Below, in pieces: positions 3,330 through 59,934 of a stretch of 64,000 bases of DNA; position 1 is the first letter of the stretch, and each line of letters begins with the position of its first letter. The stretch comes from Candidatus Adlerbacteria bacterium. Lineage in GTDB: Bacteria > Patescibacteriota > Minisyncoccia > Phycocordibacterales > SBAW01. Position numbers and translations under genes: made by a program. Where the stretch lies: positions 37,189 to 101,188 of the forward strand of contig CAINNF010000012.1 of the NCBI GenBank assembly GCA_903851045.1, in the 5' to 3' direction. The notes beneath the pieces were generated by a model, which was not told where the DNA came from, made no database searches, and saw nothing but the letters and a program-made list of their open reading frames with translations.

Positions 3330-3347
3330 GAGACACCTTCCTTTCGT

Positions 3348-3836
3348 TCATTCAGTGCTTGATTGAGACCAGTTGCCCCACCAAGCGTTGAAGCTACAAC
3401 GTATTTCCACCCCTACGCCACCACGCGATTGTTCGAAGTGGTCATCAAAGAACCCCTCAAGTCCGCAATCGCCGAAACCTCCGGAACTGGGGAGACCGAA
3501 GAAGAATTTGAGGCCTTTACGCAACCTGAAACCCACTCCCACCTGTCCGTAGTGATTCCAAGCGAGACCTGCATAGTCGAAGGTGCCCGCAGTGAACACA
3601 TACGGTCCCCCGCGGAACCCACTACCGAAATCCCACACCTTACCGATTTGCTGGTCGGCACGCCACTGAAGCGTTGGGTTATGCATACCGTCCAGTTTGG
3701 AAATATTAGGAGTACCCAAGAATGGGTATGATCCTCCTACCCATATACTCCCGGGAAGGAACGGGCCGGACGCATGTGCCCCTGGCACGGACCAGAGACA
3801 CAGTGCCATCATGATAGCCAGAGATATCGACTTCAT
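3348..3836 (-). CDS. Secreted hypothetical protein with an N-terminal signal peptide.
   Basis: 162 aa. MKSISLAIMMALCLWSVPGAHA signal peptide. Gly/aromatic-rich, no recognisable catalytic motif. Confidence 0.55.
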   Translation of the reverse strand: MKSISLAIMMALCLWSVPGAHASGPFLPGSIWVGGSYPFLGTPNISKLDGMHNPTLQWRADQQIGKVWDFGSGFRGGPYVFTAGTFDYAGLAWNHYGQVGVGFRLRKGLKFFFGLPSSGGFGDCGLEGFFDDHFEQSRGGVGVEIRCSFNAWWGNWSQSSTE

Positions 3837-7534: not shown

Positions 7535-8512
7535 CTAGATCTGAACTATTTGGTACGCAAGTGTGTGAGAATCGTGGCGAATTAGACCTTGTTCGACGCC
7601 CGCCCGGTTCAAAAAATTACCGCGAACGATCTTCCCCACCTTGCCGCTGAGTCTCGACTCGATTGCAGGAGAGAAATCGACCGGAAACGACTTGTCCTTC
7701 TCGGCGTACCTTGCGAGAAGCTCTGCCGAAGGGGACGCGGTATTCACGATGACCACGTCGAACCCGTCTCGTCCCACATCGTAGGCCAGGAGCGTCTCGA
7801 CGAGGTCGGCGGCCGTGTACCCTCGCGTCTCTGACCATTTGGTCATAATGTTCGCCACATAGACCAACTTCGCGTTCGAACGCCGTATGGCCTCTTGGAT
7901 ACCCGAGACGAGCAGGTTCGGAATAATAGAGGTATACAGATCGCCCGGCCCGAGCACGACGACATCAGCCGCGATGATAGCGTCGACCGCCTCACGGGTA
8001 ATGAAGGCAGCGGGTTCGAGCCAAATACGCCGTATGGTGCGCTCATCCTCGATGCTGCGCGTATCGATGATACCCTCGCCGCACACGGTCGACCCGTCGG
8101 ACAACTCTGCACAGATGTTGGCGCTATTGATGGACACCGGTAACACATCACCTTGCACACCAAGCAACTTACTTACCCTCCTGATACCCTCGATCGGACC
8201 CCAGTTCTGCTCGGCAGCAAGGAGTAGGAGGTTACCGAGGCTGTGGTCAGACAGCGACGAACCGTTCTTCGCGAAACGATGGTTGAACACCGTGCGCAAC
8301 GTATCGTTAGCGTCGTCCGCCAACGCGAGAAGACATTTTCGTATATCCCCCTGTGGAAGGGACCCGAACTCATCGCGCAGCACACCCGTGCTTCCCCCAC
8401 TATCGAACACGGTACAGATCGCGGTCGGATGGACCGGGTAGCCGTGAAGCCCCCGATTGACGGTAAACCCGCCCGTTCCGCCTCCGATAGTAACTATTCT
8501 TTTTCCTAACAT
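7535..8512 (-). CDS. YvcK/CofD-family protein (gluconeogenesis factor / UPF0052).
   Basis: The N-terminal IVTIGGGTGG glycine loop and overall family pattern. The likely start is MLGKR at 8512; the ORF track extends to 8560. Confidence 0.8.
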   Translation of the reverse strand: MLGKRIVTIGGGTGGFTVNRGLHGYPVHPTAICTVFDSGGSTGVLRDEFGSLPQGDIRKCLLALADDANDTLRTVFNHRFAKNGSSLSDHSLGNLLLLAAEQNWGPIEGIRRVSKLLGVQGDVLPVSINSANICAELSDGSTVCGEGIIDTRSIEDERTIRRIWLEPAAFITREAVDAIIAADVVVLGPGDLYTSIIPNLLVSGIQEAIRRSNAKLVYVANIMTKWSETRGYTAADLVETLLAYDVGRDGFDVVIVNTASPSAELLARYAEKDKSFPVDFSPAIESRLSGKVGKIVRGNFLNRAGVEQGLIRHDSHTLAYQIVQI

Positions 8513-8589
8513 ATAACGTATATAAACATCCAAAGATGACGCAAGGTGACAGTACCACAAAGTAGAAAAAAGAATACCGCCCCGACGAA

Positions 8590-8647
8590 TGTGTCCGAGG
8601 ACACTTCGTCGGGGCGGATCGCTCGTGGGAGATTGTATAACCGTGGT
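8590..8647 (-). terminator. Intrinsic terminator (second of two) downstream of rpsG and upstream of the polysaccharide cassette.
   Basis: A 19-bp perfect inverted repeat, CCGCCCCGACGAATGTGTCC / GGACACTTCGTCGGGGCGG, followed on the minus strand by TATTCTTTTTTCT. Confidence 0.5.
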
Positions 8648-8940
8648 GTGTTAACTACCCCCATCCAAAAAAACTCTGTAAACACCGGGCGACAAAGTGA
8701 CTTGGGCCGTTCCATCATTCTGCCTTCGCAACAGGGCCGTGTCGGGGATGACGACCTCCGAAGTACTATCACTCCCCAAAGACAAGGTGATGTGGAGATT
8801 CCTGTCTCGAACAGTAACTCTTTTTACCACCCCAGAACGACCGCCAGGATAGACCATGGGACAACCGACCACGGCGCTCCACTCGACTGGCCAACCTATG
8901 CCAACCCCTCCAAAGGGCATTGTCTTCGCTCCAAAAAGCT

Positions 8941-8972
8941 AGACGCCCTATTAGCGTCTAGCGTAAAGCACA
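8941..8972 (-). terminator. Intrinsic terminator (first) about 115 nt downstream of the rpsG stop.
   Basis: CTAGACGC-loop-GCGTCTAG stem followed on the minus strand by CTTTTTGG. Confidence 0.45.
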
Positions 8973-9085
8973 TATTACAATAATACAACTATGTCGTCAA
9001 GTATACCCAAAGTGAGTTACAACAAACCGGAGCGAGCACACCTCACGAATATGCGTTCAGTGGTAGCCAGAAGCACTATTGTTGC

Positions 9086-9556
9086 TTACCAGGCGAAGTG
9101 TGCGAACGCCTTGTTCGCCTCGGCCATGCGATGAGTATCTTCGCGCTTTTTGACCGCTGGTCCTTCGTTGTTGGCGGCTGCCATCAGTTCTGCCGCGAGA
9201 CGCTCGTGCATCGGCATACCCTTGCGCGCACGTGCCGCAGTGAGAATCCAACGGTAGGCCAACGCTTGCTTGCGCTCGGGGCGGACTTCACGGGGGACCT
9301 GGTAGTTAGCACCACCGACACGACGTGAGCGGATCTCCATCTGAGGACCAACGTTGCGGATAGCGGTCTCGAAGAGTTCGACCGGGTTATCGGTCTTGGT
9401 CTTCTCCACGATAAGGTCGAAGGCATCATAAACGACCTTGCGCGCGGTCGACTTCTTGCCATCCCACATGACGGAATTGATGAACTTCTCGACGCGCACT
9501 GAACTAAACTTCAGGTCTGGGCCGGCGATATTACGATTTTTTACTGGTCGTCGCAT
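9086..9556 (-). CDS. rpsG: 30S ribosomal protein S7.
   Basis: 156 aa, typical S7 sequence ([10 protein letters not shown]... FAW). Confidence 0.95.
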
Positions 9557-9561
9557 ATAAA

Positions 9562-9975
9562 TTATTTACTCTTCTTGCGCTTCACACCGTACCGACTGCG
9601 AGAGACGTTGCGCTTGTCGACGCCGGAGGCGTCGAGACGACCGCGGACGACCTGGTAGCGGACGTTGATGTCCTTCACGCGGCCGGCGCGCACCATGACC
9701 ACCGAGTGCTCCTGGAGATTGTGACCCTCGCCTGGAATGTACGCGGTAATCTCTTGGCCGTTGGTGAGGCGTACGCGAGCGATCTTGCGGATAGCGGAGT
9801 TCGGCTTGCGAGGGGTCATCGTGGTCACCTTGGTGCACACACCACGCTTGAACGGGGATGGGTAGAAGATCGGGCGGTTCTTAAGTACGTTAAACCCGCG
9901 CTGGAGTGCCGGCGCTTTCGATTTACTCTTCAGTTTTGTGCGTCCCTTGCGGACGAGCTGTGATATGCGTGCCAT
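9562..9975 (-). CDS. rpsL: 30S ribosomal protein S12.
   Basis: 137 aa. Conserved PNSA..K..RV.L and GHNLQEHS motifs. Confidence 0.95.
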
Positions 9976-10044
9976 TAGTACTTAAAAACGCCCTCAGGCG
10001 CTTGTGGGCTACTCTACTATACAGCGGGCAATTGTGCAAACTTT

Positions 10045-10120
10045 ACTACTTGTTCGGACCATACTCCCCGTGGGCTTCGCAGATTTCTTTCATAAGCCCC
10101 GGACCTTCAAAGGTCGTATT
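10045..10120 (-). pseudogene. Diverged remnant of a pyrD 3' end (C-terminal about 23 codons) between the rpsL start and the upstream gene.
   Basis: On the minus strand it encodes TFEGPGLMKEICEAHGEYGPNK*. The authentic pyrD C-terminus is MVFEGPGLMKEICEAYAEEYGGR*. About 70 nt at roughly 80% identity to 11336-11400. Confidence 0.35.
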
Positions 10121-10126
10121 GGCCAT

Positions 10127-10169
10127 ATGGCAAAACGACCCGTCACTCACCAAGGTGAGGACGGGTCGT
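10127..10169 (-). terminator. Intrinsic terminator after the hypothetical gene 10190..10651.
   Basis: ACGACCCGTC-15 nt-GACGGGTCGT stem followed by TTTTG on the minus strand. Confidence 0.45.
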
Positions 10170-10189
10170 GGGTACTCAAACGATCTCGT

Positions 10190-10651
10190 TCATGATGTAC
10201 CGCTCAGCTGCCTGATCGTCGACAGCGTGTCTTCTGCAATGACGAGCGCAGGATCTTGAAGCTTGGCGACCACTCCATCAAGCTGCGGCTTGACCACTGC
10301 CAAACGTTCAGTCGCCCGAGCAATGACCCCTTCGAGCTCGGCCACCTCTCGCTGCAGAGCGGGTAGCTGTTCTCGATACTTACGCGCTTGGTCGACGATT
10401 TGTGAGAGTTTTTTTACCTCCGCAATAAGAAGGTCGCTGGCGACAAGTGATGGTGCCGCAGGGACCGTAGGCTGAGACGGTGCAGTCTTCACAGGCAACT
10501 CCGTTGGCGTATAGGAACTCGCACACAGCCGCTCAAGATGGTGACTGGCGATACAGAGCAACGTATCCGCGCTACCTGGCTCCAAGTAGCCCGCCTCGAT
10601 AAGACCTTGCAGGTCTGTCTCAGAGGACTGTCGGCCAAGCTGCCGTAGCAC
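10190..10651 (-). CDS. Hypothetical protein: Pro-rich linker plus C-terminal coiled coil. Probably the 3' part of a frameshifted gene.
   Basis: 153-aa ORF. Its reading frame stays open upstream across the stop of ORF 10723..11181. Confidence 0.45.
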   Translation of the reverse strand: MLRQLGRQSSETDLQGLIEAGYLEPGSADTLLCIASHHLERLCASSYTPTELPVKTAPSQPTVPAAPSLVASDLLIAEVKKLSQIVDQARKYREQLPALQREVAELEGVIARATERLAVVKPQLDGVVAKLQDPALVIAEDTLSTIRQLSGTS

Positions 10652-10722
10652 ATCGACGCACAGCTCGCGCGATACGACACCCTCTGGCGTAGCAACGGAA
10701 AGTATTTCTCCCAGAAATAGCT

Positions 10723-33978: not shown

Positions 33979-35532
33979 TTACTTACAAAGCCGCTCCCGC
34001 AGCTCAGCAAGTTTGGCGAATGGACTATCCGAGTTGGTTTCACCAACCCGGCCATCCTCCGAAGTATCGTCCACCTTGGGAGCTTGTGGCTCCCGTTTGG
34101 GTTTTACAGGAACAGTAGGTGACACCTGCTCCTGCCTTGCGGAAGCGACGCGAACGCCGCTTTCCGTCACCCACGAGCAGCCGTGAAGCTGCCCGAGCCG
34201 AGCGAGGGTTTCCCTTTGTTCGGGCGTGAGCCCGTCAACAGGAAGTTTGTGCACCACACCATCGCGCTCGGCATGCTCGCGGAACCCCTCCCACGAGAGA
34301 GACGCCTCCCTTGGGTACACATAGTCCCAGTGACGGGTATGTGTCCCCCGCTGGTGCGACCGAGAGTATTCGTCTCGGTCGTGCTCGCGCAGCGATCCGT
34401 CTGGACGGATAACGTACCCGCCCCCGTCGCCGCGCTGACTGCTCGTATGCACAAAAGCGGAGAAATCCGCGAGAGCACGACCAGACGCAACTGCTGCAGC
34501 CATCTGCTCGGCCTCTTCGGCTTTGCGTCTAGCTTCAGCTTCTTCTGCAGCCTGACGCCTTGCCTGCTCCTCGGCACGAACGCGAGCAGTCTCGAGCTGT
34601 TCGCGGAACTTCACCAGCTCCGCGACCGCATGGTTGCATACCTGTTCCGCCTCACTGCGCTGCCGTTTCCAGGAAAGCACGAAATAGGTCCGAGACCAGG
34701 ATGTATTTGCCTCGACCACGCCGTATACCTTGAGGTCGCGGCCATTTATGTCGCGGCCGTAGACAAACTCAACCAGTGGCGGAATCGTCGCCGTATGATT
34801 GGACGCAAAATCCGGCACAGAAACTTCCGGAAACTTCGCAGCCCGCCACACAGCATCATTCCATCCAGCAGACGTGAGTCCGCCAGATAAATCAACCTCA
34901 ACCAACGGGGCTGAAAGAAGCAACTCACCGTTCGCAACGCGAGTTGTGATGCTCGCGACCGCTTCGTCGGTGAGCTGCGGAACAGGGAAATTATATTCCA
35001 AGTCCCTGCCCTCTTGCCGCCGCGAGTAGAGATCGCCCACGAACGGCTTCACACCACCCGCAATCCAGATGAGTGGTTCGACCATACCCTTTGCGGGGGC
35101 ATGGTCGAACTGCTCGAAAACGAGCAGTGCAGCGGGCGAAAAGCGACTCGCATAGACTGAACCGTTAGAATGGAAGTAGTACGTCGAATACCCCTTCCAT
35201 GCATCGGGCACTAGCCCGAAACGAGCGGTAAGAAGCGCAGACGCTTCTTGTTCGCCGAACAGTGCACACGAGCGGAGGACCTCCGCTTCATGTGCAATTG
35301 CCTGTCGGACGGCCTTGCCCAGATCGAACCATGCATGGTTCGCCTGGTACATTGCTCTGCCCCGCGCGTCGCGCTTCTCTACCGGGACGAGCTCGACCCG
35401 GACGATCTGCCCAGGATCAACATCGCGCGGCAAGAAGACGATGCTTCCGCCGTGCGACGAGATGCACTGACGCGTCTCGTCGTACTTTTTCCCCTTCTCT
35501 GCAAGAAGGGTCGCAATAGGTGTGTCGGCCAT
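33979..35532 (-). CDS. Hypothetical 517-aa protein. N-terminal TRAM-like beta-barrel domain (paralogous to 38585..39322), a central coiled coil and an uncharacterised C-terminus. Last gene of the island operon.
   Basis: GGSIVFLPRDVDPGQIVRVELV resembles a TRAM domain (G.V.F.P...PGE.V.V.I). GAGGGAGGG RBS. ARRQAAEEAEARRKAEEAEQ coiled coil. Confidence 0.6.
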   Translation of the reverse strand: MADTPIATLLAEKGKKYDETRQCISSHGGSIVFLPRDVDPGQIVRVELVPVEKRDARGRAMYQANHAWFDLGKAVRQAIAHEAEVLRSCALFGEQEASALLTARFGLVPDAWKGYSTYYFHSNGSVYASRFSPAALLVFEQFDHAPAKGMVEPLIWIAGGVKPFVGDLYSRRQEGRDLEYNFPVPQLTDEAVASITTRVANGELLLSAPLVEVDLSGGLTSAGWNDAVWRAAKFPEVSVPDFASNHTATIPPLVEFVYGRDINGRDLKVYGVVEANTSWSRTYFVLSWKRQRSEAEQVCNHAVAELVKFREQLETARVRAEEQARRQAAEEAEARRKAEEAEQMAAAVASGRALADFSAFVHTSSQRGDGGGYVIRPDGSLREHDRDEYSRSHQRGTHTRHWDYVYPREASLSWEGFREHAERDGVVHKLPVDGLTPEQRETLARLGQLHGCSWVTESGVRVASARQEQVSPTVPVKPKREPQAPKVDDTSEDGRVGETNSDSPFAKLAELRERLCK

Positions 35533-35656
35533 GTCGGCCCTCCCTCAGAGGAATCATTCCTCAACGGCCCAATCTCCCCCATGGAGACAAGGCCGATAAA
35601 GGAGGCCTCGGACACACCAACCACGGTGCGCCCGAGACCAAACCAGAAAAGAACTG

Positions 35657-37261
35657 TCAGAGGCGGTTGAATACCTCTTGTGCGTCGGCGTCGGAGAACG
35701 ACGAGGCACGAAGAATGTCGCCATCGCAGAACCTCTTGAGCGTGGCGTCGCTCGTATGGCCAACGTCGCAGAGAATCCCCACGACATTGACCCCACGCAG
35801 ACGCTTTTCTGCAAGAAATTCCGCCAGAAACGCCTCCGTGACATGGGCGTCGCCATCGGTGATGAAGGCAATGTCCGCTTTTTTGAGACCCTCAATCCGA
35901 ATCGTATTCATCGCGTCGGTGAGCGGACGCTCAAAGTCCGTACCCGATGCTTTGAGAAACGTTTCGGCGATCTCAAGGGTCTCTCTGGGCGAGAGTCGTC
36001 CACCTTTATACACACGGGTCACGTTTTTGGAATCACGTGCTCCGTAATGTATCCAAACGAACGATCTTTTGCGGAGTTTTGCATAGTATGCAAGTGCGAG
36101 CACTGTCGCCTTCGCCCACACCTGCTTCGCCCCTTCCATAGAACCGGAGCCATCTTCGCAGACCACCACCGGCCCCTCGCCCATTTTTTGCTTCGCCTCT
36201 TCGCCACGCAGACGAAGCTCGCCCCTGCTCCAGCGCGTGAGAGCTTTCGTACGGAGTGCAGGATGCGCGAGCGCAACAAGCTCGGAGGAGACCGCGCGTT
36301 TGATGTCGCGGCCCGTCTCAAACTTCGTCACGCGCACACCCTCGGCCTGCTCCTTGGACCGCGCCTTGCGAGCAGCGATCTTTTTGATTCGGCCGAGGAT
36401 TTTAGCGAAGTCCTTGAACGCTTTATTATTTTGTATGCGTTCAAGAAGGGCGAGAGCTTCGGGGATACCCTCACGGGTCAACTCCCCTTCCTCAAAGCCC
36501 CATGTCTGGAGGGTCTCCGACACCTCCTCGACCTTCTCTTTGGCTCGCTTCGCTGCGGCGAGGCCGAGGCGTGCGAGCTCTTGCAGTTTCTTTGCCGCTG
36601 CTTCGCTCCCGGGTTTCCCCATCAGCGATTCGGCGGCGGCATCGGCTTGCGCCTGCGCAGTATCAGCTGCCGCACGAGCAGCTTGCGCCTGTGCACGTGC
36701 CTCTGCCGCTTGCGCGGAGAGACCGGCTGCTTGTGAAGAGGGTTGCCCCGCCCCGCCAGCAGATTGTGCTTGCTCGGCCAATTCGCCGAGCATATCAGCC
36801 TCAGCTTCGGCCTTTTGAGCTTCGGCCTCTGTCTCGTCCGCCGTATTTTGCGCGTCGGCGGACTCTTGAAGCTTTTTTGCATCCCCTTTCGACACATTCG
36901 CGACGATGGTGTCACCCATCGTGAGCGTGCCAAGGATGGACGCGAGCTCCGAGAACCGCGTCTGCGCATGGAGCCCCTCGTAGGCGGATGTCGCCATCGC
37001 GCCTTTGAGAATCTCCGCGAAGAAGCTCCGGTCGCTCGGCGCATCATCGCGCACCACAGGCGTTGCCGCCCAAAGCACGTGATAGATGTCGGCGAGCGCG
37101 CCGGCAGTGCCGGGGAGCTTCTGCTCCCCGGCAGCCTCGAGTTCGGCAAGTGCGGGCATACGCTCGCGTTGCCGGAGGAAGCGGAGCGCCGTGAAGGCGT
37201 CCGCGTCTGTCACGAGCAGCTTTTGCAAGTCTGCCCGCGACAGTGTCTTCGGTGCCTTCAT
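35657..37261 (-). CDS. vWA-domain protein (CoxE-like; C-terminal von Willebrand A domain with MIDAS). Partner of the upstream MoxR ATPase.
   Basis: VVVCEDGSGSM (DxSxS) ... ITDGD MIDAS motif. Ala/Gln-rich coiled-coil N-terminal half. The start is 8 nt after the MoxR stop, with a GGTAGGAGGGG RBS. Confidence 0.8.
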   Translation of the reverse strand: MKAPKTLSRADLQKLLVTDADAFTALRFLRQRERMPALAELEAAGEQKLPGTAGALADIYHVLWAATPVVRDDAPSDRSFFAEILKGAMATSAYEGLHAQTRFSELASILGTLTMGDTIVANVSKGDAKKLQESADAQNTADETEAEAQKAEAEADMLGELAEQAQSAGGAGQPSSQAAGLSAQAAEARAQAQAARAAADTAQAQADAAAESLMGKPGSEAAAKKLQELARLGLAAAKRAKEKVEEVSETLQTWGFEEGELTREGIPEALALLERIQNNKAFKDFAKILGRIKKIAARKARSKEQAEGVRVTKFETGRDIKRAVSSELVALAHPALRTKALTRWSRGELRLRGEEAKQKMGEGPVVVCEDGSGSMEGAKQVWAKATVLALAYYAKLRKRSFVWIHYGARDSKNVTRVYKGGRLSPRETLEIAETFLKASGTDFERPLTDAMNTIRIEGLKKADIAFITDGDAHVTEAFLAEFLAEKRLRGVNVVGILCDVGHTSDATLKRFCDGDILRASSFSDADAQEVFNRL

Positions 37262-37269
37262 AGCCCCTC

Positions 37270-38472
37270 CTACCGGCGGACGCCCGTCGCCTTCGCGACG
37301 AACTCCGCCTTCTTTTTGCCAACCTCTTTCCGCAGGTCGGCGATTGCGGTCTTATCGACCCCGCTTGCCTCACCTTCGAGACGACCGAGCTCGCGCTCGG
37401 TCTCCTCGAACTGCGCGAGCGCGGGAACCAGCTTGTTGCGGTCGCCGCCCTCGACGAGAGCGACCATGCCACCCGGCGCAAAAAGCGCGTCCACCTGCTC
37501 CTGCGCATCCGAGAGAGGCGTGCGCACGAGCGGGGCAATCTTCGCCTTCACGACCGGGATCTGCTCGGGAGTGTCCCAGAGCAGGTACTCGAGCACGCGC
37601 AGATCGGCAGAGCCGACCTGCGCACGCCCGTCGAGTATCGCCGACGCTTGCAAGACGTCGAATACCCGCCCGAATCGCCGATCGTCGTCCCAGAGCCACT
37701 GGAAACCGGCCGTGTCCTCGTCGAGCAGCTGCTGATACAAGTCGAGAACGAGCTCGACCATATCGTCAGCAACCTCGACGAACGGCCGCGCTTCCCGCAG
37801 CGTCTCGACTTCCGCGAGCGAAAGCCGAGCAGCGGCAGACACAGCAGCACCACGGTCGCGAACAAGTCGCGCCGCAACGAGCGACAGCTTTCCACCGCGA
37901 TCCAGCGGGTCCACCTGCACGCGGAGGGTCATTCGCGACCACATCGCGCCCAGGTTTCCTTCTGGGTCGGGCGGCTCGTTGCTGGCCGCGAGAAACGCGA
38001 GAAGCGGCGGCTTGAAGTCGCGCCCCTCGTGCCGGATTGCGTCCCCGTTCGCGAAGTCGAGAACGGTCTGGAGAACGCGCGGGTCCCCCTTCCATATCTC
38101 GTCCGCGAAGAAGAAATGTGCGTTCGCGGCGCGCCCGATCGAGTCACGCGTGCGAATGAGCTTGCGCCCCTCCGCGTCGACTGACTCCTCGATCGCGGTC
38201 TCTTCGACGAAGAGTCCCTCGAACGAGGTCATGGTCGGCATGAGAGCCCCGTAGTAGCGGGCACCCTCGATCACGCGCGACAAGTCCTTCACGGTGCCCG
38301 TTTTGTTGATACCGGGCGATCCGAGAAAGAACGCGGGGTGGCCGGCGACCGTCGCGAGCATCGTTGCCCGCACGATTGCCTCGCGTCCGATGTTGCGCGA
38401 AGCAACGTCGGCCCCGACAATCGCCACTTTCGGCGCGAGGCCTGTGGCGAGATTGAGAATTTCCTTATTCAT
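37270..38472 (-). CDS. MoxR-family AAA+ ATPase.
   Basis: Walker A GSPGINKT, Walker B FFFADEIWKG and sensor-1 AASNEPP in MoxR-type spacing. 400 aa. Confidence 0.85.
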   Translation of the reverse strand: MNKEILNLATGLAPKVAIVGADVASRNIGREAIVRATMLATVAGHPAFFLGSPGINKTGTVKDLSRVIEGARYYGALMPTMTSFEGLFVEETAIEESVDAEGRKLIRTRDSIGRAANAHFFFADEIWKGDPRVLQTVLDFANGDAIRHEGRDFKPPLLAFLAASNEPPDPEGNLGAMWSRMTLRVQVDPLDRGGKLSLVAARLVRDRGAAVSAAARLSLAEVETLREARPFVEVADDMVELVLDLYQQLLDEDTAGFQWLWDDDRRFGRVFDVLQASAILDGRAQVGSADLRVLEYLLWDTPEQIPVVKAKIAPLVRTPLSDAQEQVDALFAPGGMVALVEGGDRNKLVPALAQFEETERELGRLEGEASGVDKTAIADLRKEVGKKKAEFVAKATGVRR

Positions 38473-38486
38473 CAGTCTGTCCCTTT

Positions 38487-38590
38487 CTTGCCCGTGACCT
38501 TCGACTTCGCTCAGGTCGTGGGCGTGGGTGCCGCGAGCGTCCTCGCAGCTTGTTTGAAGATTTCATCGCCATAATCCCGTCGGATTATGG
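38487..38590 (-). repeat. Leader repeat copy 1 (about 104 nt) immediately upstream of the MoxR start. Contains the palindrome CCATAATCC-gacg-GGATTATGG.
   Basis: About 90% identical to 39347..39428. Both copies end 25-30 nt before a start codon, with GGTCACGGGCAAG then an RBS then ATG. The palindrome overlaps the TAA stop of the upstream gene. Confidence 0.7.
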
Positions 38591-39322
38591 TTCGCGGAGT
38601 ATTCTGTCTGCCTCCGCGTCGGACATCCCTACAGTGAGACGCGTGCTTAGCGCCTCATTGCGTGTGGATGCCCGCTCGACACTCTCAAGCCATGCATCCG
38701 AAATCTGTACACGCCGATACTCCTTACCGGCCTGCACAGCATCTGCGATAGACGGATTAGCCATCCACTGCAGACACTCTTCCAGCTGGAGCTGGTCTGC
38801 GCTTGGCAGAAGCTCGAACACAAGGAGCATCTGCCGCGAGAGAGTCGTGTGACGTATCTCCCCCGAGGCGAATATGACGCGACCGTACTCAATACTAGGT
38901 GCGCCACTCCACTCACGCGCCAGACTGAAGAGCAGAGCTCGACGCTTTATCCAAGAAAGCGACCGAGCGAACCCAGTCCCCTCTTGGAGCATGCGAGAAA
39001 AAGCCTGCTCCATTGGGAGCGACTCTCCATCACGCTCCATGCGGAGAAGCATGCTTGCTTCTTCCGCAATTGCTCGCCTGCACTCTTGCGATAGGGTTGG
39101 AGGTGCGAGCTCGCCACGGTACATGAATGCCCCGGTAGCACTTCTTTTCGCCAAAACTTGTAGTCTGGCTCGTACAACCGAGCCAATTTTCAGACTTGGC
39201 GGCAAAAATACAATGGGTCCGCGACGAATCCTCCCGCCGATGAAGCCGACGCGGTCGGCGTCACTTCTTCGGCCTCGCTCGACAGCGAGGTATTCCACCT
39301 TGCCGTCCCTGTTTTCATCCAT
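38585..39322 (-). CDS. Hypothetical 246-aa protein with an N-terminal TRAM-like domain (paralog of the N-terminus of 33979..35532).
   Basis: GRIRRGPIVFLPPSLKIGSVVRARL aligns with GGSIVFLPRDVDPGQIVRVEL, and RRAIAEEA aligns with RQAIAHEAE. The ORF track starts at 39436; the ATG at 39322 (MDENRDGK), preceded by GGAGAGGATGGAGAT, is the likelier start. Confidence 0.55.
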   Translation of the reverse strand: MDENRDGKVEYLAVERGRRSDADRVGFIGGRIRRGPIVFLPPSLKIGSVVRARLQVLAKRSATGAFMYRGELAPPTLSQECRRAIAEEASMLLRMERDGESLPMEQAFSRMLQEGTGFARSLSWIKRRALLFSLAREWSGAPSIEYGRVIFASGEIRHTTLSRQMLLVFELLPSADQLQLEECLQWMANPSIADAVQAGKEYRRVQISDAWLESVERASTRNEALSTRLTVGMSDAEADRILREP

Positions 39323-39346
39323 ATCTCCATCCTCTCCTTGCCCGTG

Positions 39347-39428
39347 ACCTAAGTCGTGGGCGTGGGTGCTGCGAACGTCCTTGCAGCTTGGTTGAAGATG
39401 TCCTCGCCATAATCCCGTCGAATCATGG
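39347..39428 (-). repeat. Leader repeat copy 2 (about 82 nt) upstream of the TRAM-like gene. Contains the imperfect palindrome CCATGATTC-gacg-GGATTATGG.
   Basis: Alignment with copy 1 shows a 12-15-nt indel and about 8 substitutions. Confidence 0.7.
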
Positions 39429-39627
39429 CGAGCCAACGCGTCGCTTTCGCGACACCGGTAGCCTGCATGCCTCCGATGCCGTGCTTGTGCGCCGCGATGG
39501 AGGCAAGGTCGAACGCGGCCGAAGGCGACTTATCCCGCGCAATGCCAATGCACTCCATACGGAGCGCCTCGGGCACCTGCGCGAGCACACCGGCACGAAG
39601 CTGGAGCTCATGCAGTGGACGAGACAT
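39349..39627 (-). CDS. Possible small ORF (92 aa) overlapping the HD-gene stop and reading through leader repeat copy 2. Doubtful.
   Basis: Start overlaps the HD stop by 20 nt. GC-rich region. The corresponding frame in copy 1 is closed. Confidence 0.25.
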   Translation of the reverse strand: MSRPLHELQLRAGVLAQVPEALRMECIGIARDKSPSAAFDLASIAAHKHGIGGMQATGVAKATRWLAMIRRDYGEDIFNQAARTFAAPTPTT

Positions 39628-40132
39628 GCTCGACCTCCCGCAAAAGCTCCTCGATTAAGGGCGCGCCATCCGGATCGATCTCGTACCACAGCGGCAGCGC
39701 AGACCGAATCTCCGCAAGCTTGCGCTCACGGAACTCAGGTGGCGCGTGCCGCAGAGTGTTGAGATTGTCCAGGCGGTCGGACCGCTTCACAGTGACCGCT
39801 AAGCAGCCACCGACGGCCACGCGACGAAGATACACTGCATCCGGCTCCTCTTCCTCCTCGTGGCTTAATGCACGAACGACCCGCGCCACTCGCTCGCCGA
39901 ACTGCTCGGCAAGCGCAGCATCCGTCGTGTCCGTATCCTCGAGCACATCGTGCAAGAGGGCGGACACAATGAGATCCTCAGCATCACTGCCGAGGAGCCC
40001 GTTGTCGCACGCGAATTGCGCGGCAATAAGCGCCACGCGCATCACGTGCTCAATCTGGGACTCGCCGCCGGGGCGGGTTTGTCCCTTATGTCCCACTTGC
40101 GCGAACGCAAGCGCTGCGGGAATTTTATTCAT
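39608..40132 (-). CDS. Stand-alone HD-domain hydrolase of Rel/SpoT type (small-alarmone-hydrolase-like), 174 aa.
   Basis: HVMRVALIAA...ALLHDVLEDTDTT...EQFGERVARVVRALSH matches the ppGpp-hydrolase HD domain of RelA/SpoT/Mesh1 (RVA...ALLHDVVEDT...FG..VA.LV.GVTK). Start MNKIPAAL at 40132 with a GGAGA RBS; the ORF track over-extends to 40519. Confidence 0.7.
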   Translation of the reverse strand: MNKIPAALAFAQVGHKGQTRPGGESQIEHVMRVALIAAQFACDNGLLGSDAEDLIVSALLHDVLEDTDTTDAALAEQFGERVARVVRALSHEEEEEPDAVYLRRVAVGGCLAVTVKRSDRLDNLNTLRHAPPEFRERKLAEIRSALPLWYEIDPDGAPLIEELLREVEHVSSTA

Positions 40133-40241
40133 AGGTCTCCTCGTCCCTATCAACCCGCGAATGATCCGCGAGCTGAATAAGTCTGGCGAACGCACACGGT
40201 ACCACCGCGCACGCTCGCCAAAAAACCAAGAACCAGTTACT

Positions 40242-41975
40242 TCACCACGGGCACCGTGTCGTTTCGGTGCCCGAGATGACCTCTTCTGCGTCCCATATAA
40301 GGGCGTTTTCGTTCCAGAACGTGGCGGAAGTCTTGTCCGCGTTCCGGTCCCACGGCTCAGCGGGACACCGTGTCCCGATGAAAGCCGTGAGGAGAACGTA
40401 GGCACCGCCGGTGGTGCGCTTGACCAGCACCACCACCCGCGAGCACGGCTCGGGCTTCCGGTTTTTGACGAACCGGGTGAGCCCGCGACGATTCGGCCGC
40501 TGGGCATAGACGATTTCATCCGCGCTAGTTGTCGCGACGCGGATGTTTTCGCCGACGACTCGCCCCATGTCGAGTTCGGCGATAACGACCTCGCGGCTGT
40601 CCGAACTCATCATACTGAGTGCCTCAGCGAGGCACGGAAGCACGCTCGAGTGCGTGGCGACGTGACTATCTTTCACGTCGACCACAAATTCACCCGACGC
40701 AAGCCGTCCCAAAATGGGGACGCCCCAGCGCAAAAGATCGAACGAAACCGGGAAGATTTCCCCGACCTTTTCGTCCGGGCCGGCGACGACAACCGCCGGT
40801 CCAGCGAAGGGGTACGCCTCGTCCCACAGCCGCCCGCCGAGGGTAGGCTGCGCCCGGCCGGACTCAACCGGCCAGAACTGCCCCACCCACGGACAGCCCG
40901 CGCGCGCGTAGGCACGCACGAGTGTCGCATGGAGCCACATCGGCGGGCCGTCGTTTGCGACGACGGCCGGCCGTGAGGTGTCCACACCGGGCGGCACCAG
41001 TTGCCGCAGGTCATCCACCGTGATGAAGCGCGTATTGCGCCACTTCACCAAAGTGAATTCGGGAAGTGCGAGCACTTCCCACTCGACACCCGGACAAAAG
41101 CCCGAGCCCGACGGCGTCACTTCGGGGATACGGATGTACCCCTTGCTGACGTCGTAGAGCTCGACTGCGCCCGAGAGTCGGGCGGCGTAGGCCGAGGCCA
41201 GAATCGCCGCGCGGGCGTTGTACACTCGCACGGTTTCGAGTTTGTTTGCCGCACGCGCCAAGACGAGTGCCGGACGCAGATGCGCCGGACGCACGCCAAG
41301 AAATGGATCGTGCGCATCGTCAACGCCAAGCCGCGTCAACAGTGACGCGACATTAATGTTGGCGATGAGCTCTCCATTCGTGATCTCTCCGTTTTCACGG
41401 ATGATCTCACGAAGACGATTCACAACCGCGTCGAGCGTGGGCGACTGGATAGTCTGCCCACGCTCGAGTCCCGAGATCCGCCCGCGGACGACGCCGTCGC
41501 CGCGGTCGACATACAGCTCGCAGGTGCCGTGAAGCACACTGTCGAGCTCGGCGAGCACGGCGACATTGCGCGCAGCAGCAAATTGCCGCCACGCAACGAC
41601 TTCATCCTGCTTGGACGAGAGGATGATGCACGCGTCGCATGCATCAAAAATCCTCTCGTTCGCCTCGGAGCGAACGCCGCCGGTGTCTACCAACACCAGC
41701 GGTTGTTCGTTGGCTTTGATGGCCTCCACCATCGAGCCAACGAAGTTTTCCGTGAATTTTCCCTTTTGCCGCACCGCGGCGACCAAGACTTGGTCGCCAA
41801 AGTTACTCCAGTGCCACTCCCCATCGGGGGCGGCAAAGGCCAGATAGAAGCTGTCTGGCGGCAGCTGGCACATCAACTGCGCCAAGAATACGGACTTGCC
41901 GCTGTGCGGCGGCCCGCAGACGATGACACGCCGCATGGCGCTTCTCCTCTCTTTGTTTGTGTGAACCTTTATCAA
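40242..41975 (-). CDS. 577-aa protein: an N-terminal P-loop NTPase/kinase-like domain (about 150 aa) fused to a large uncharacterised C-terminal domain.
   Basis: Walker A VIVCGPPHSGKSV and LVLVDTGG (Walker B/G3-like). The C-terminal 400 aa have no recognised motif; the ELD..K / VVLVK stretch could be nuclease-like. GAGAGGAGAAG RBS. Confidence 0.6.
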   Translation of the reverse strand: MIKVHTNKERRSAMRRVIVCGPPHSGKSVFLAQLMCQLPPDSFYLAFAAPDGEWHWSNFGDQVLVAAVRQKGKFTENFVGSMVEAIKANEQPLVLVDTGGVRSEANERIFDACDACIILSSKQDEVVAWRQFAAARNVAVLAELDSVLHGTCELYVDRGDGVVRGRISGLERGQTIQSPTLDAVVNRLREIIRENGEITNGELIANINVASLLTRLGVDDAHDPFLGVRPAHLRPALVLARAANKLETVRVYNARAAILASAYAARLSGAVELYDVSKGYIRIPEVTPSGSGFCPGVEWEVLALPEFTLVKWRNTRFITVDDLRQLVPPGVDTSRPAVVANDGPPMWLHATLVRAYARAGCPWVGQFWPVESGRAQPTLGGRLWDEAYPFAGPAVVVAGPDEKVGEIFPVSFDLLRWGVPILGRLASGEFVVDVKDSHVATHSSVLPCLAEALSMMSSDSREVVIAELDMGRVVGENIRVATTSADEIVYAQRPNRRGLTRFVKNRKPEPCSRVVVLVKRTTGGAYVLLTAFIGTRCPAEPWDRNADKTSATFWNENALIWDAEEVISGTETTRCPW

Positions 41976-42110
41976 GCCAACCCCGTTTCACTGGGACGAG
42001 CTTGAGCAAGGTCTCGAGCCGGTTACCAACCAGCTCGAGGACCAAACCGAGTGAGCGTGCCGTGCCACGCTCACCAAACCGTTAACACCTACAACACGGG
42101 CAAGTGAAGA

Positions 42111-42536
42111 TTACGATTTCTGGAGGATCTTCACCTCCACCCGCGTGTACGTGACGTACACGCGGAACTGTTCGAAGCGCTCGCCGAGCTTGGCGGCGTA
42201 CGATTCGACGAGCACGGCCCAGTCCTCGTCGGACAGATTCGCCGCGTAGAGCGGCGACTTGTCGGACGTCAAGACGAGCGCCGGCTCGTGCTCGCCGTGC
42301 CAGCCGTCGCCAGTCGGGTAGGCGTAGGTGATCACCGAGTCGGTGACGATGAACGGAACGAACGGCTTGCCGGCAGCGCCGTCCTGCTTGTACAGGTCGG
42401 TCAGAAAGGCGAGGACCTCGCCCTTCTCCTGCGCGAATCCGGTGTAACCCTTCTTCAGACCGAGGTTGATCTCGGCCCGAATCGTGTTCCTGGCATGACC
42501 GACGTTGCCGTTCTCGGTCGGGATCGAATAAACCAT
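42111..42536 (-). CDS. Hypothetical protein (141 aa from the MVYSIPTEN start).
   Basis: Perfect AAGGAGG SD 7 nt before the ATG at 42536. The ORF track starts at 42572. Confidence 0.5.
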   Translation of the reverse strand: MVYSIPTENGNVGHARNTIRAEINLGLKKGYTGFAQEKGEVLAFLTDLYKQDGAAGKPFVPFIVTDSVITYAYPTGDGWHGEHEPALVLTSDKSPLYAANLSDEDWAVLVESYAAKLGERFEQFRVYVTYTRVEVKILQKS

Positions 42537-42731
42537 GAGTGTCCTCCTTAAGGACGTTTGGGGTATTGGCATGATTGCCTCACCCTTTCAAACAGTCGTG
42601 TATATGCAACGACACACAACAACTTGAAAGGGTGCACGAATGGGTACCAGCCATTCGTGCGAAAACCTGTACCAACGCGCCATACCGCGCTGATGCTATT
42701 AACCTTGCTCCTTATATGGAGGAGTTTGCCG

Positions 42732-43130
42732 TCAGGCCCGGACGAGCCGGGTGACGGCGTAGACCTGGCCGTCCGCCGTGCGGACGACTCCGTCCCGCGG
42801 GCCGGTGCCGGGGATGAAGACATCCTCGCGTGCGGCCACTTCGGGCCGCCCGCCGACGAGGGCGGAGACCAAGTAGACGGTCCCCTCCTCGGGCTCGGGC
42901 AGCCCCTCCACCGCACCATACGCGGTGCGGTCGAAGGTGGGCACACCGCCCAGGTCGGGCAGGCGCCCGCCTGGCGTGGTCGAAACCCGCGCGGGCGCGG
43001 GCCTGCCGTCCGCGCCAAGGCGCGGCAGGACGACGATGTCGGTCTCGTCCGGCTTCGGCGCCGTATTGGCGGCGTTCATCCGCAACCGGAGCGGGTGCGG
43101 GTTCAGGTTGAGGAACTTGACGTCGATCAT
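42732..43130 (-). CDS. Hypothetical protein (132 aa), Pro/Gly-rich. First gene of the island operon.
   Basis: GAGGGGG RBS before ATG (MIDVKFLNL). Confidence 0.5.
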   Translation of the reverse strand: MIDVKFLNLNPHPLRLRMNAANTAPKPDETDIVVLPRLGADGRPAPARVSTTPGGRLPDLGGVPTFDRTAYGAVEGLPEPEEGTVYLVSALVGGRPEVAAREDVFIPGTGPRDGVVRTADGQVYAVTRLVRA

Positions 43131-43336: not shown

Positions 43337-43425
43337 GTATGCGACCCCTCTTTCCAGCACGATGGGGCGAGCGCAATATATTTGTGCTGCTCGCATGCCG
43401 GCATAGTGCGGAAAAGAGGGGTCAC
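43337..43425. repeat. Nested-hairpin element: outer inverted repeat ATGCGACCCCTCTTTCC / GGAAAAGAGGGGTCACAT enclosing the GCGAGC..GCTCGC and ATGCCGGCAT palindromes.
   Basis: Read directly. The GCGACCCCTC core recurs at about 44207 and 49487. Confidence 0.5.
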
Positions 43426-43644: not shown

Positions 43645-44019
43645 TCACAAATCGTTGAGGTTCACCTCCACCGCCCCATCCTCCGGCCACTGCCGGAGTA
43701 CAAAACGTTTGCGATAGAGAGAGTACATCTCCCCACCGCGTCCGACGGCAACCTCGCCCTCAACCCCCACGAAGAGGGTCCGGGTGCCGTCGGAAGACCA
43801 AGTCACGACCAACCCCGGCATAGTGCCCGCCTTGGCATTTAGCCAAGGCGTGCAACCGGGATTGTCGACGAGCTGGGCGTAGCCAAGCTCTGGGAATTCC
43901 TCCCAGAGCCCTTTGGTACCCCACAGGGGACCCATCGAAACCCCAACCCACTTCCCAATCTGGCCGGAGAAGGCCAAAAAAGTAAGAGAGTTGTCGGAGT
44001 TCCGCATAATTTTTTTCAT
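43645..44019 (-). CDS. Hypothetical protein (124 aa from the MKKIM start).
   Basis: GGAGGA RBS before ATG. The ORF track extends to 44115. Confidence 0.45.
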   Translation of the reverse strand: MKKIMRNSDNSLTFLAFSGQIGKWVGVSMGPLWGTKGLWEEFPELGYAQLVDNPGCTPWLNAKAGTMPGLVVTWSSDGTRTLFVGVEGEVAVGRGGEMYSLYRKRFVLRQWPEDGAVEVNLNDL

Positions 44020-44949
44020 GTAATCCTCCATTTGGAGACCTCGTCCATCCCACACCCATGACAGTGCGGCGAGGCGGCCTTGCGGCCATGTTTGTGTGCC
44101 CGGGCAACGTGACACTGCACGAATTGGCGCGATGAAGGCGCCAACGGCCCGGTTTTAGTCAGCGTGACACTGCACGCGGGATCGCTCTTCTTTCGAAGTG
44201 CACATGCGACCCCTCTTTCCGGTTCGACTTCCCTCGATAAATCTCGGGATAAATCGCTCACCGTAAACGGCAAACGAACATTCAAGCCGGAGAAGAGGAA
44301 TAACATTGTGATTATCTGCTTTCGCAGAAAGTTTTTTCACGTTTTCCTGTTCTACCTATGGCATCCAGACACACTGTTTAGGAGCGATCTGGAAGAATTT
44401 TGTCAAAGACCTTTCCTTCAGGCGGCCGTGGCCTTGGCGAAGGAGCCCTCTCTATGAGGACATTTCTAAGCATGAAAGCTGGTTTAGGTCTTTCGTGCTC
44501 AGCCGATGTCTCCCCGAGCCTTTGGCTCGGGACCCCGCAAAGCTCGTGAGAGCGCAGTGGGGCCAAAACAACGTTCGATACAGCTGGCTTCTCGCCCTAC
44601 TCTCACGGCTGGGGACCCATTTGCGGAGGTGCCATGCCCGAGAGACCGTATCTGCAAATAGAGATTTATTTCGAGCCGCCTCTCATCCCCACTCTCTCCT
44701 CTTTCTACGCTTAGCCGCTTTGCAGCAGGGGCCGTAGTACCCTCCCGGCGAGCCGGGACTAGAGGTGGGGGACGATTCGAATGAAACCTCCCGTCTATGA
44801 TGAACTCTTGCTTCGGGCTATTCCCTCGGCATCTGACAACATCTTAGCATTTTCATTGCCAAGTGTCAAGCCATGTGTGGCAAATAATCGTTCTCGTGTC
44901 ACGCAAAATACCCTTGATTTGTATGTATTTTATACGAAATAAGGTTTTA

Positions 44950-44997: not shown

Positions 44998-45840
44998 ATG
45001 GATACCAAAGAACTTTCGTATGGTCAGAGCTTGGTCGAGGCAGGTTTGACGAAGGACGAGGCGCTCGTCTACGAGACCCTCGTGCTGCGCGGCCCACTCC
45101 AAGCTGGCGTATTAAAGCGGCATGTTCCTCTCTCCCGCCCGCTGGTATATAAGGTGCTAGGGACACTTGAGGCGGCTGGGTTAGTCGAAAAAAGGGATGA
45201 ACCCGGCAAAGTCGCCGTCTTCGCCCCCGCGCATCCGCTGAAGTTACAGGAGTTGGTCGAGAGGCGCTTCGACGACGCTCAAAATGCAAAGTCCTCTCTC
45301 GAGGGAGCAATCTCGCGACTCATCTCCGACTTCAACCTCGTTTCGGGTAAGTCGGGTATACGGTTTTATGAGGGTACAGACGGCGTGCGTGAAGTACTTA
45401 ATGACGCACTCACAGCAAAGACCGAGATACTCGCCTATATAGACATCGAGACGGTGGAGCGCGAGATGGGGGAGGCAAGCAAAGCGTTTGGTATCGCTCG
45501 CAAAAAACGCGGCCTCCACAAGCGCAACATCGCCGTCGACACACTCGCTAACCGAGCACTCGTTGACCAAGAATATCTTGATGACATAACTAAAGAGCGG
45601 CTTATCCCTTGGTCAACGCCCACATTCAGTGTCTCGACGCAGATATACGACGATCGTGTGTCATATCTCACATTCGGCGCCCAGAAGATCGGCGTCATCG
45701 TCAACGACCCAGCAATTGCCGCCATGCATCGCGGGTTATTTGAGTTGGCGTGGAGTCACCCGAGCGCATATGTACCAAAGACTCACGCAGCTAAGGCAAG
45801 CGGCTCAGCTACTGACGACAACCGCTCGAATGCAGCATAA
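44998..45840 (+). CDS. TrmB-family transcriptional regulator (paralog 1).
   Basis: N-terminal winged HTH (LTKDEALVYETLVLRGPLQAGVLKR...LVYKVLGTLEAAGLVEK) plus a TrmB-like C-terminal domain. Confidence 0.8.
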   Translation: MDTKELSYGQSLVEAGLTKDEALVYETLVLRGPLQAGVLKRHVPLSRPLVYKVLGTLEAAGLVEKRDEPGKVAVFAPAHPLKLQELVERRFDDAQNAKSSLEGAISRLISDFNLVSGKSGIRFYEGTDGVREVLNDALTAKTEILAYIDIETVEREMGEASKAFGIARKKRGLHKRNIAVDTLANRALVDQEYLDDITKERLIPWSTPTFSVSTQIYDDRVSYLTFGAQKIGVIVNDPAIAAMHRGLFELAWSHPSAYVPKTHAAKASGSATDDNRSNAA

Positions 45841-56180: not shown

Positions 56181-56219
56181 AGCGCCCATCGTAGCCTTGG
56201 CGAAGAAGGGCCTTCGCTC

Positions 56220-56267
56220 GCCATAGCGAGCTTCGGCGGGCAAGCCCGCTAAGTTCGCGACGATGAG
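56220..56267 (-). promoter_or_regulatory. Conserved 48-nt element upstream of tRNA-Trp containing a GCGGGC-tt-GCCCGC hairpin (copy 1).
   Basis: Nearly identical to 59886..59934 upstream of tRNA-Pro. Confidence 0.5.
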
Positions 56268-59805: not shown

Positions 59806-59876
59806 TCGGGCCGCCGAGAATCGAACTCGGTCAACCTGCTCCCAAAGCAGGTGTACTACCGGTATACTACGGCCCG
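59806..59876 (-). tRNA. tRNA-Pro (anticodon TGG). CCA not encoded.
   Basis: Manual cloverleaf: CGGGCCG acceptor, anticodon stem CCTGC/GCAGG with loop TTTGGGA, T-arm CCGAGTTCGATTCTCGG. Confidence 0.75.
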
Positions 59877-59885
59877 CCTTCGTCC

Positions 59886-59934
59886 GCCATAGTGGACTTC
59901 GGCGGGCAAGCCCGCGTAAGTTCGCGACGGAGGA
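59886..59934 (-). promoter_or_regulatory. Conserved element upstream of tRNA-Pro (copy 2) with the GCGGGC-aa-GCCCGC hairpin.
   Basis: GCCATAGTGGACTTCGGCGGGCAAGCCCGCGTAAGTTCGCGACGGAGGA versus copy 1 GCCATAGCGAGCTTCGGCGGGCAAGCCCGCTAAGTTCGCGACGATGAG. Confidence 0.5.

Follow-up and report, generated by a model that had tools for sequence, protein, structure and literature searches.

In a 64,000-nucleotide stretch of DNA from a Candidatus Adlerbacteria bacterium (GenBank assembly GCA_903851045.1, contig CAINNF010000012.1, positions 37,189 to 101,188; hereafter the window), two minus-strand genes, here called A and B, encode what sequence comparison identifies as two members of one undescribed protein family, related well beyond chance. 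We propose, with a rough probability of 55%, that members of this family act as the third component in a conserved operon for a MoxR-type ATPase and a von Willebrand factor A (vWA) protein found mainly in the Candidate Phyla Radiation (CPR, Patescibacteria). The overall explanation favored here, held at that same rough probability, is a MoxR-vWA switch in which a shared family core is extended by later modules in the long-form A and stands bare in B. An original prediction made from the sequence of the window had linked A and B through a nucleic-acid-binding N-terminal domain; their membership in a MoxR-vWA operon was absent from it.

Linkage to MoxR and vWA genes

The genes that carry the argument are listed below, in window positions.

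33979-35532, minus strand: gene A, 517 residues, long-form family member directly downstream of the vWA gene (open reading frame [ORF] and 13 close homologs)
35657-37261, minus strand: vWA protein, 534 residues, ViaA-like, with an intact metal ion-dependent adhesion site (MIDAS) (Pfam VWA_CoxE, 5e-4; NCBIfam ViaA, 2.9e-10)
37270-38472, minus strand: MoxR-type AAA+ ATPase, 400 residues, RavA-like (Pfam bpMoxR, 1e-17; AAA_lid_8, 7e-12)
38585-39322, minus strand: gene B, 245 residues plus stop, short core-only family member

Sequence upstream of the family gene was readable in 13 related loci (L001 to L010, L012, L013, and L018), and in all 13 the family gene lay directly downstream of MoxR and vWA orthologs, the products of which were 45 to 92% (MoxR) and 46 to 87% (vWA) identical to those of the window. 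The third component of L007 and L018 was itself a core-only protein (212 to 216 residues), which marks the two-module core described below as the constant part of the family.

Besides the families listed, the ATPase matched Pfam AAA_5 and the RavA structures 3nbx and 6q7l in PDB (E of 4e-26), and its Walker A (GxPG[IV][ND]KT), Walker B (F.DE), and sensor 1 (AASNE) motifs were kept in 10 MoxR orthologs. The Pfam matches of the vWA protein were weak and below gathering cutoffs (VWA_CoxE, 19.9 versus 26.4 bits; VWA_2, 15 versus 27 bits), so that its assignment rests mainly on motifs, the MIDAS elements DxSGS, GGT, and ITDG being kept in 10 vWA orthologs. The protein terminates with its vWA domain.

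A core of two modules shared by A and B

The predicted parts of the two proteins, all encoded on the minus strand, are as follows.

A residues 1-72, 35317-35532, minus strand: module 1, predicted TRAM-like five-stranded beta-barrel (AlphaFold2, Foldseek, Pfam, hhalign)
A residues 73-215, 34888-35316, minus strand: module 2, predicted alpha/beta domain of ~140 residues (distant-relative profile)
A residues 254-349, 34486-34773, minus strand: predicted three-stranded sheet, then a long single helix (AlphaFold2 secondary structure)
A residues 346-465, 34138-34497, minus strand: module 3, beta-rich, with the motif WVIRPDGSLRE (BLASTP against family members)
A residues 500-517, 33982-34035, minus strand: C-terminal tail motif, DSPFAKLAELRERLCK (listing of C termini)
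B residues 6-79, 39086-39307, minus strand: module 1 (distant-relative profile match)
B residues 77-229, 38636-39094, minus strand: module 2 (distant-relative profile match)

BLASTP aligned residues 3 to 167 of A with residues 6 to 194 of B at an E value of 1e-11 and 29% identity; the N-terminal likeness claimed in the original prediction is thus real and reaches beyond the ~80 residues to which it had been confined. The strings quoted in its favor were located at residues 28 to 49 of A (GGSIVFLPRDVDPGQIVRVELV) and 34 to 56 of B (RGPIVFLPPSLKIGSVVRARLQV), and at residues 76 to 86 of A (RQAIAHEAEVL) and 82 to 92 of B (RRAIAEEASML). To guard against circularity, profiles were built from distant family members only, excluding B and the A family. 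These profiles found residues 6 to 79 of B at 3e-17, residues 77 to 229 of B at 7.6e-11, and module 2 of A (residues 73 to 215) at 1e-28, and in a multiple alignment with 13 A-type homologs, B spanned residues 1 to 215 of A over nearly its full length. After module 2, ~15 residues are left in B, and everything beyond about residue 215 of A is absent from it. Since its second half is homologous to residues 73 to 215 of A, B is a core-only protein lacking an unrelated C-terminal half, and the claim that the C-terminal halves of the two proteins are unrelated does not hold. The accompanying suggestion of paralogs with different outputs holds only in part: B is a bare two-module core with no output region, and its nearest kin are stand-alone short forms of other genomes, not the co-resident A. 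Within module 1, Asp55, present in more than 90% of family members, is replaced by Ser61 in B, and Arg57, present in A and most members, is replaced by Thr63.

A predicted TRAM-like barrel in module 1

AlphaFold2, supplied with a 50-sequence alignment, modeled residues 1 to 74 of A as a confident five-stranded barrel (predicted local distance difference test [pLDDT] score of 91.8), with strands at residues 6 to 10, 23 to 27, 30 to 33, 43 to 54, and 60 to 66. RumA, with which the original prediction had proposed a comparison, was the best Foldseek match of this barrel in PDB (1UWV; E of 0.013, probability of 1.0, TMq of 0.52, 19% identity). A second RumA structure, 2bh2, was likewise among the top matches, and RlmCD, MMP0076, and RimO, which carry TRAM domains, were further listed; for MMP0076 (1yvc), the template modeling (TM) scores were 0.52/0.54 and the root mean square deviation (rmsd) was 2.7. 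S1 domains of Rpb7, NusA, and RNase R were mixed among these matches, and no barrel match in PDB reached an E value of <1e-3.

In sequence searches, Pfam TRAM (PF01938) was the sole family matched repeatedly by the module, with 8 of 50 modules matching at an E value of ≤10 (best E, 7.9e-4); none of the full-length family members matched TRAM in Pfam at ≤0.01. Three PDB sequences were matched by the barrel profile at ≤10, with IsrB ranking first (0.023) and MM1357 (1yez), a stand-alone TRAM protein, second (0.034). With hhalign, the barrel aligned over 42 columns, at a probability of 77.7% and an E value of 1.9e-5, to a TRAM alignment of only four sequences (the TRAM segments of E. coli RlmD, MiaB, and RimO and of MM1357), the family segment being DETGEAIASY.RSIVFLP..V.PGQ.VRV.L, and it reached a probability of 2.1% against an S1 control made of six RpsA domains and the S1 domain of NusA.

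Module 1 resembles the TRAM domains of RumA/RlmD, MiaB, RimO, MM1357, and MMP0076 in its ~60 to 70 residues and five-stranded barrel, and around the central strand-loop-strand the family pattern IVFLP..PG..VRV.L corresponds to lFiPg.lPge.v.V.v of TRAM. It differs in being fused to an unknown alpha/beta module instead of a radical-SAM or methyltransferase enzyme, in a family-specific loop (K-x-D-x-R-G-x-x-M-Y-R), and in a family score under the Pfam cutoff. Module 1 therefore appears, at a subthreshold level, to be a divergent TRAM-like domain outside formal Pfam membership. As for the TRAM resemblance originally proposed, the barrel fold, RumA as best structural match, and TRAM as top Pfam family bear it out with moderate strength, although the Pfam cutoff was not reached. 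RNA binding by the barrel is a prediction from this fold.

The IsrB match was to PDB chain 8dmb_P (an IsrB fusion; RNA-guided nickase), residues 209 to 255 (VALAVDPGAKYDGVAVASH...AMVFLPDDV), and was about as strong as that of MM1357. A protein search with the barrel profile returned one protein, which added nothing.

The remainder of A and the wider family

Module 2 had no sequence relative in Pfam or PDB, only chance-level matches. The full-length model of A (pLDDT of 83.5) continues beyond the core with a small sheet (residues 254 to 289), a long helix (292 to 349) that is probably a coiled coil, a beta-rich part (354 to 456), a disordered stretch (464 to 499), and a terminal helix. The domain with WVIRPDGSLRE recurs in ~29 family proteins by BLASTP, many of them long-form, and is thus a third family module, absent from B. 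Its profile gave a sole lead in PDB, a chance-level match to a PAS-like RPDG stretch of 3nja (E of 0.021), and otherwise only chance-level matches to Pfam and PDB sequences. When the full-length model was compared with PDB by Foldseek, no match had an E value of <0.04, only OB-type barrels and noise being returned, and the comparison with viral structures gave one unnamed, uninformative match (4e-4, rmsd of 16).

The tail motif consists of an acidic/polar stretch, an amphipathic helix, and K/R-[FW]-G-G followed by a basic end (for example, PFAKLAELRERLCK, LDALRRKFGGPR, and TAMAAALRKAGLV). It lies at the extreme C terminus of most full-length members despite highly variable preceding regions, is absent from B and other short core-only forms, and may be a docking peptide.

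Of 5.8 billion sequences searched, 13 were close homologs of A and only 2 of B, and a profile of the shared region recovered 118 cluster representatives among 1.84 billion proteins. Most family proteins are 500 to 900 residues long, with module 1 at residues 3 to 75 and module 2 at about 295 to 450; stand-alone core forms of ~200 residues also exist. Many long forms carry between modules 1 and 2 a beta-rich insert of ~220 residues, absent from A and B, that ends in a cysteine-rich zinc ribbon, and what follows the core differs across the family in both length and sequence. The ribbon has the pattern CxCGR...C..C...C..C...C..C (for example, in L006 at 1300-3687 and L010 at 8001-10688).

No family in Pfam, NCBIfam, or PADLOC describes A or B, and 55 full-length relatives scanned against the same libraries gave nothing consistent, only sporadic zinc ribbons. 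The PADLOC family LmuB (Lamassu, SMC-like) was matched by 5 of these 55 relatives, all long-form (best E, 1.6e-7); homology to LmuB was set aside, as the matches probably trace to coiled-coil segments.

Among 185,579 species genomes, the long-form alignment found six matches, in Doudnabacteria, Saccharibacteria (two loci), WWE3, an unclassified Patescibacterium, and one metagenome-assembled genome labeled Gammaproteobacteria; these six loci belong to the 13 in which the family gene comes directly after MoxR and vWA orthologs. A species-genome scan with the close-family alignment and scans of viral contigs found nothing.

Origin of gene B

Gene B is bracketed by a direct repeat of ~115 nucleotides, with 89% identity over the longest stretch of 76 nucleotides, that contains the 3' end of a gene for a 92-residue protein, a ribosome-binding site (RBS), and a start codon.

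38467-38590, minus strand: downstream repeat copy (remnant 3' end of the 92-residue gene, RBS, and start codon used by MoxR)
39317-39428, minus strand: upstream repeat copy (true 3' end of the 92-residue gene, RBS, and start codon used by B)

The repeat duplicates the RBS and start codon, so B and MoxR each use one copy; the downstream copy has the stop codon of B at its edge. Among the loci compared, B was found only in the window and in L003; in other relatives, the 92-residue gene abuts MoxR. L003 has the repeat twice and loci without B have it only once, indicating that the insertion is older than the split of the two lineages. Stand-alone short forms matched B better (2e-17 and 3.5e-15) than did the co-resident A (1.6e-9), of which B is hence not a recent copy. 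Compared with its L003 ortholog, B had a ratio of nonsynonymous to synonymous divergence (dN/dS) of 0.18, the neighboring genes having values of 0.13 to 0.26, at a dS of ~0.49 between the lineages. B is a real gene under purifying selection.

Operon neighbors and island setting

A, B, and the MoxR and vWA genes fall within an island at 33979-43130 of nine to ten minus-strand genes, with a guanine-plus-cytosine (GC) content of 60 to 63% versus ~53% in the flanks. Its other genes are as follows.

39349-39627, minus strand: 92-residue protein, in L001 to L005, L007, L009, L010, and L018, always just upstream of MoxR in relatives
39608-40132, minus strand: HD phosphohydrolase of the SpoT/RelA-hydrolase type (HD_4), ~174 residues (Pfam HD_4, 1.2e-13; NCBIfam spoT_relA, 6e-20); start placed by homolog length
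40242-41936, minus strand: AAA-Csx3 protein, a P-loop NTPase with a Csx3/Crn3-like domain at about residues 296-367 (PADLOC C3a67, 8.7e-45)
42111-42536, minus strand: conserved protein of ~141 residues, with homologs in L004 and L009
42732-43130, minus strand: small Crn4-like (Unk_01) protein, first gene of the operon (PADLOC Unk_01, 6.3e-11; PDB Crn4a 9sma, E of 0.006)

The 92-residue and ~141-residue proteins had no Pfam or PDB match. The AAA-Csx3 protein also matched the Csx3 structures 6yud and 3wzg in PDB (4.5e-4). Unk01 has been equated with Crn4 (PMC12830947), the AAA-Csx3 family has been described (PMC6546367), and Crn4 and Csx3/Crn3 are cyclic-oligoadenylate (cOA) ring nucleases (PMC12830947, PMC6546367). 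In related loci, genes for AAA-Csx3, the HD hydrolase, and the Crn4-like protein were often near the family gene.

Several further observations concern these neighbors. A C-terminal extension of the AAA-Csx3 protein, ~200 residues long, was matchless in every library and is kept in relatives of 564 to 570 residues. The N-terminal LNLNPHPL of the Crn4-like protein may be the counterpart of the catalytic Thr-x-His of Crn4; kinship of this first operon protein with Crn2/AcrIII-1 (DUF1874) was also considered and was dropped, only a faint L005 match pointing that way and PADLOC and PDB both indicating Crn4. A small conserved protein of the type KILWMSQHEPLPSQ..AL...FG..V.V..DP+PF lies beside the MoxR, vWA, and third-component genes in the distantly related loci L010 (3796-4098), L012 (4439-4828), and L013 (10497-10850), and none was noticed in the window island. 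Island neighborhoods differ between genomes: in L003 and L018 the island adjoins trigger factor, and in L004 its neighbors are a serine recombinase, a DDE transposase, and methyltransferases. A divergent TrmB-type regulator gene is usually nearby (44998-45840 in the window). Between the island and the TrmB gene, a 24-nucleotide repeat (ATGCGACCCCTCTTTCC...) at 43339-43362 and 44204-44227 flanks an unannotated ORF of 156 residues (43645-44115, minus strand).

Elsewhere in the window, a 40-nucleotide element with 88% identity between its copies (GCCTTCG..CGCCATAG..GCTTCGGCGGGCAAGCCCGC) occurs at 56210-56249, ~30 nucleotides upstream of tRNA-Gly(tcc), and at 59876-59915, directly ahead of tRNA-Pro(tgg), with both tRNAs on the minus strand; the two may share it as a leader or promoter element.

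Comparison with described systems

Four types of MoxR-vWA ternary system have been described, with VMAP, iSTAND, FtsH, or beta-propeller third components (Kaur, Burroughs, Iyer, Aravind 2020, PMC7159879). The operon of the window is like them in combining a MoxR protein (bpMoxR match of 1e-17) and a vWA protein with MIDAS with a faster-varying third protein, and in its patchy, island-like occurrence. It differs in gene order (MoxR, vWA, third component here; VMAP, MoxR, vWA in VMAP systems), in a vWA protein without a fused effector domain, and in hosts that are apparently CPR bacteria, those described being multicellular actinobacteria and cyanobacteria. VMAP, iSTAND/STAND, double-FtsH, and beta-propeller families were unmatched in A, B, and the 55 relatives (Pfam, NCBIfam, PADLOC), the term TRAM is absent from PMC7159879, and no literature linking MoxR with a TRAM domain was found. 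This comparison suggests that the TRAM-core third component is distinct from the four described types.

The closest solved and curated kin of the ATPase and the vWA protein are RavA and ViaA of E. coli (RavA, 4e-26 in PDB and 5e-30 in NCBIfam; ViaA, 2.9e-10), a pair without a TRAM-core partner. Both window proteins scored below the equivalog cutoffs (RavA, 105 versus 681 bits; ViaA, 39.9 versus 500 bits). The ATPase has 400 residues versus 498 in RavA, and the match stops near RavA residue 304, leaving the C-terminal part of RavA unmatched; the LARA domain lies in that C-terminal part. As for the accessories of type III CRISPR systems, two genes of the same operon match AAA-Csx3 (C3a67) and Crn4 (Unk01). 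In contrast to that setting, arrays were absent from the window and related loci, neither cas10 nor any other cas gene turned up among the window proteins scanned or in those loci, A and B are unrelated to these accessories, and AAA-Csx3 here has its extra C-terminal region of 200 residues.

Proposed mechanism and alternative explanations

We propose that the family core would bind a ligand, most plausibly RNA, through its TRAM-like barrel; that the MIDAS of the vWA protein might, by analogy with other MoxR-vWA pairs, capture a peptide of the third component that is acidic or extended and may be its C-terminal tail; and that the MoxR ring would then spend ATP to remodel or release the captured third component, acting as a threshold switch of the kind put forward for other MoxR-vWA ternary systems. 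There is precedent for vWA peptide capture and MoxR-driven release as a model (Kaur et al. 2020, PMC7159879). B, devoid of the later modules, the tail, and Asp55, could serve as a second, output-less ligand binder, a regulator or competitor. The linkage to AAA-Csx3, Crn4-like, and HD genes suggests a connection of the switch with cyclic-oligonucleotide or other nucleotide signaling in a conflict (defense) setting. In its most specific form, the proposal would add to the MoxR-vWA ternary conflict systems a fifth class, one specific to the CPR, with an RNA-binding TRAM-core third component, cOA wiring through the AAA-Csx3, Crn4-like, and HD proteins with no CRISPR-Cas nearby, and B as a decoy in the interaction with RNA or vWA or as the protein that sets its threshold; we offer this form tentatively, as a speculative possibility.

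Several points weigh against the proposed switch. Every TRAM test fell short of the conventional significance threshold: module 1 of A scored 13.8 bits (E of 0.053) against Pfam TRAM, the gathering cutoff of which is 21 bits, the best Foldseek E value was only 0.013, with S1-type barrels nearly equal to TRAM structurally, and the hhalign target held only four sequences. By our own sequence count, acidic and basic residues are about equally frequent in the A barrel, leaving it without net positive charge. In RimO, the TRAM domain belongs to an enzyme with a protein substrate, so that a TRAM fold is no proof of RNA binding. That A or B contacts either of its presumed partners, vWA or MoxR, is a proposal by analogy, and core-only third components lack the tail, which accordingly cannot be the universal vWA ligand. 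No recognizable effector domain was found in A, B, or the 55 relatives by family library scans, the window and related loci showed neither a CRISPR array nor a cyclase, and no cas family was found among the island proteins, ten of the larger window ORFs that were scanned, or the related loci; the defense or cOA reading is consequently drawn from gene neighborhood alone.

Some of these points could mean that the barrel is a generic OB/S1/SH3-like fold, TRAM-like by convergence and used for docking to a protein such as the vWA or MoxR partner instead of binding nucleic acid. The subthreshold TRAM scores, the S1/OB domains of Rpb7, NusA, and RNase R that equal RumA in TM score, the charge of the A barrel, and the protein-directed TRAM domain of RimO all fit docking. 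We nevertheless regard it as unlikely, given the contrast between the hhalign results for TRAM (four sequences) and S1, the standing of TRAM as the sole Pfam family matched by several members and of MM1357 as second PDB match, and the alignment of the motif G-x-[IV]-A...[IV]-V-F-L-P-x-x-x-P-G-x-x-V-R-V-x-L with the TRAM signature. The picture first drawn for A and B, in which a TRAM module of ~80 shared residues precedes two unrelated C-terminal output domains, has in its favor the TRAM-like shared N-terminal barrel and the variation of postcore regions across the family; it is very unlikely in view of the homology of B 77-229 to A 73-215, the ~15 residues that then remain, and the core-only proteins that are the closest relatives of B.

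Two other explanations concern the role of the operon and the status of B. By analogy with midasin/Rea1 in ribosome biogenesis, MoxR-vWA could be a housekeeping CPR chaperone that assembles or remodels an RNA-protein complex, A and B then being assembly factors that bind RNA. Genes for trigger factor, NusA, and pyrophosphatase adjoin the system in the window, L003, and L018, and RavA-ViaA, CbbQO, and NorQD are maturation factors (PMC7159879); the failure to find an effector domain is also consistent with such a role. Against this, the family is rare and patchy, with 118 representatives among 1.84 billion proteins and matches in 6 of 185,579 species genomes, none in most CPR genomes; the island stands out from its flanks in GC content; those flanks differ by genome, with genes for a serine recombinase, a DDE transposase, and DNA methyltransferases among them; and the linked AAA-Csx3 and Crn4-like genes are typical type III CRISPR accessories. 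We therefore consider a housekeeping role quite unlikely. Finally, the restriction of B to the window lineage and its closest relative, the duplication scar at its flanks, and the loss of Asp55 might be taken to mean that B is a functionless pseudogene fragment, a decaying partial duplicate of A. This is highly improbable, as the B ORF is intact in two lineages at a dS of ~0.49 with a dN/dS of 0.18, has its own RBS and start codon, copied from the MoxR junction, and is more like functional stand-alone short forms than like A.

Implications

MoxR-vWA pairs are widespread ATP-driven switches with targets known in few cases. The most informative result here is the proposed assignment of A and B to a third-component family that had not been described for MoxR-vWA systems. 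This partner family, compact, conserved, and hitherto without a name, starts with a predicted barrel of the RNA-binding type and is found mainly in Patescibacteria, which have tiny genomes and few recognized defense systems. An operon that encodes a full-length paralog alongside a core-only one provides a natural experiment on sensing parts versus output parts. Linkage to ring nucleases of the Csx3/Crn4 type with no CRISPR-Cas nearby would carry cOA biology outside the context in which it is usually found. Were the core to bind RNA and be remodeled by the ATPase, the operon would be a tractable new example of a switch that reads a nucleic-acid signal.

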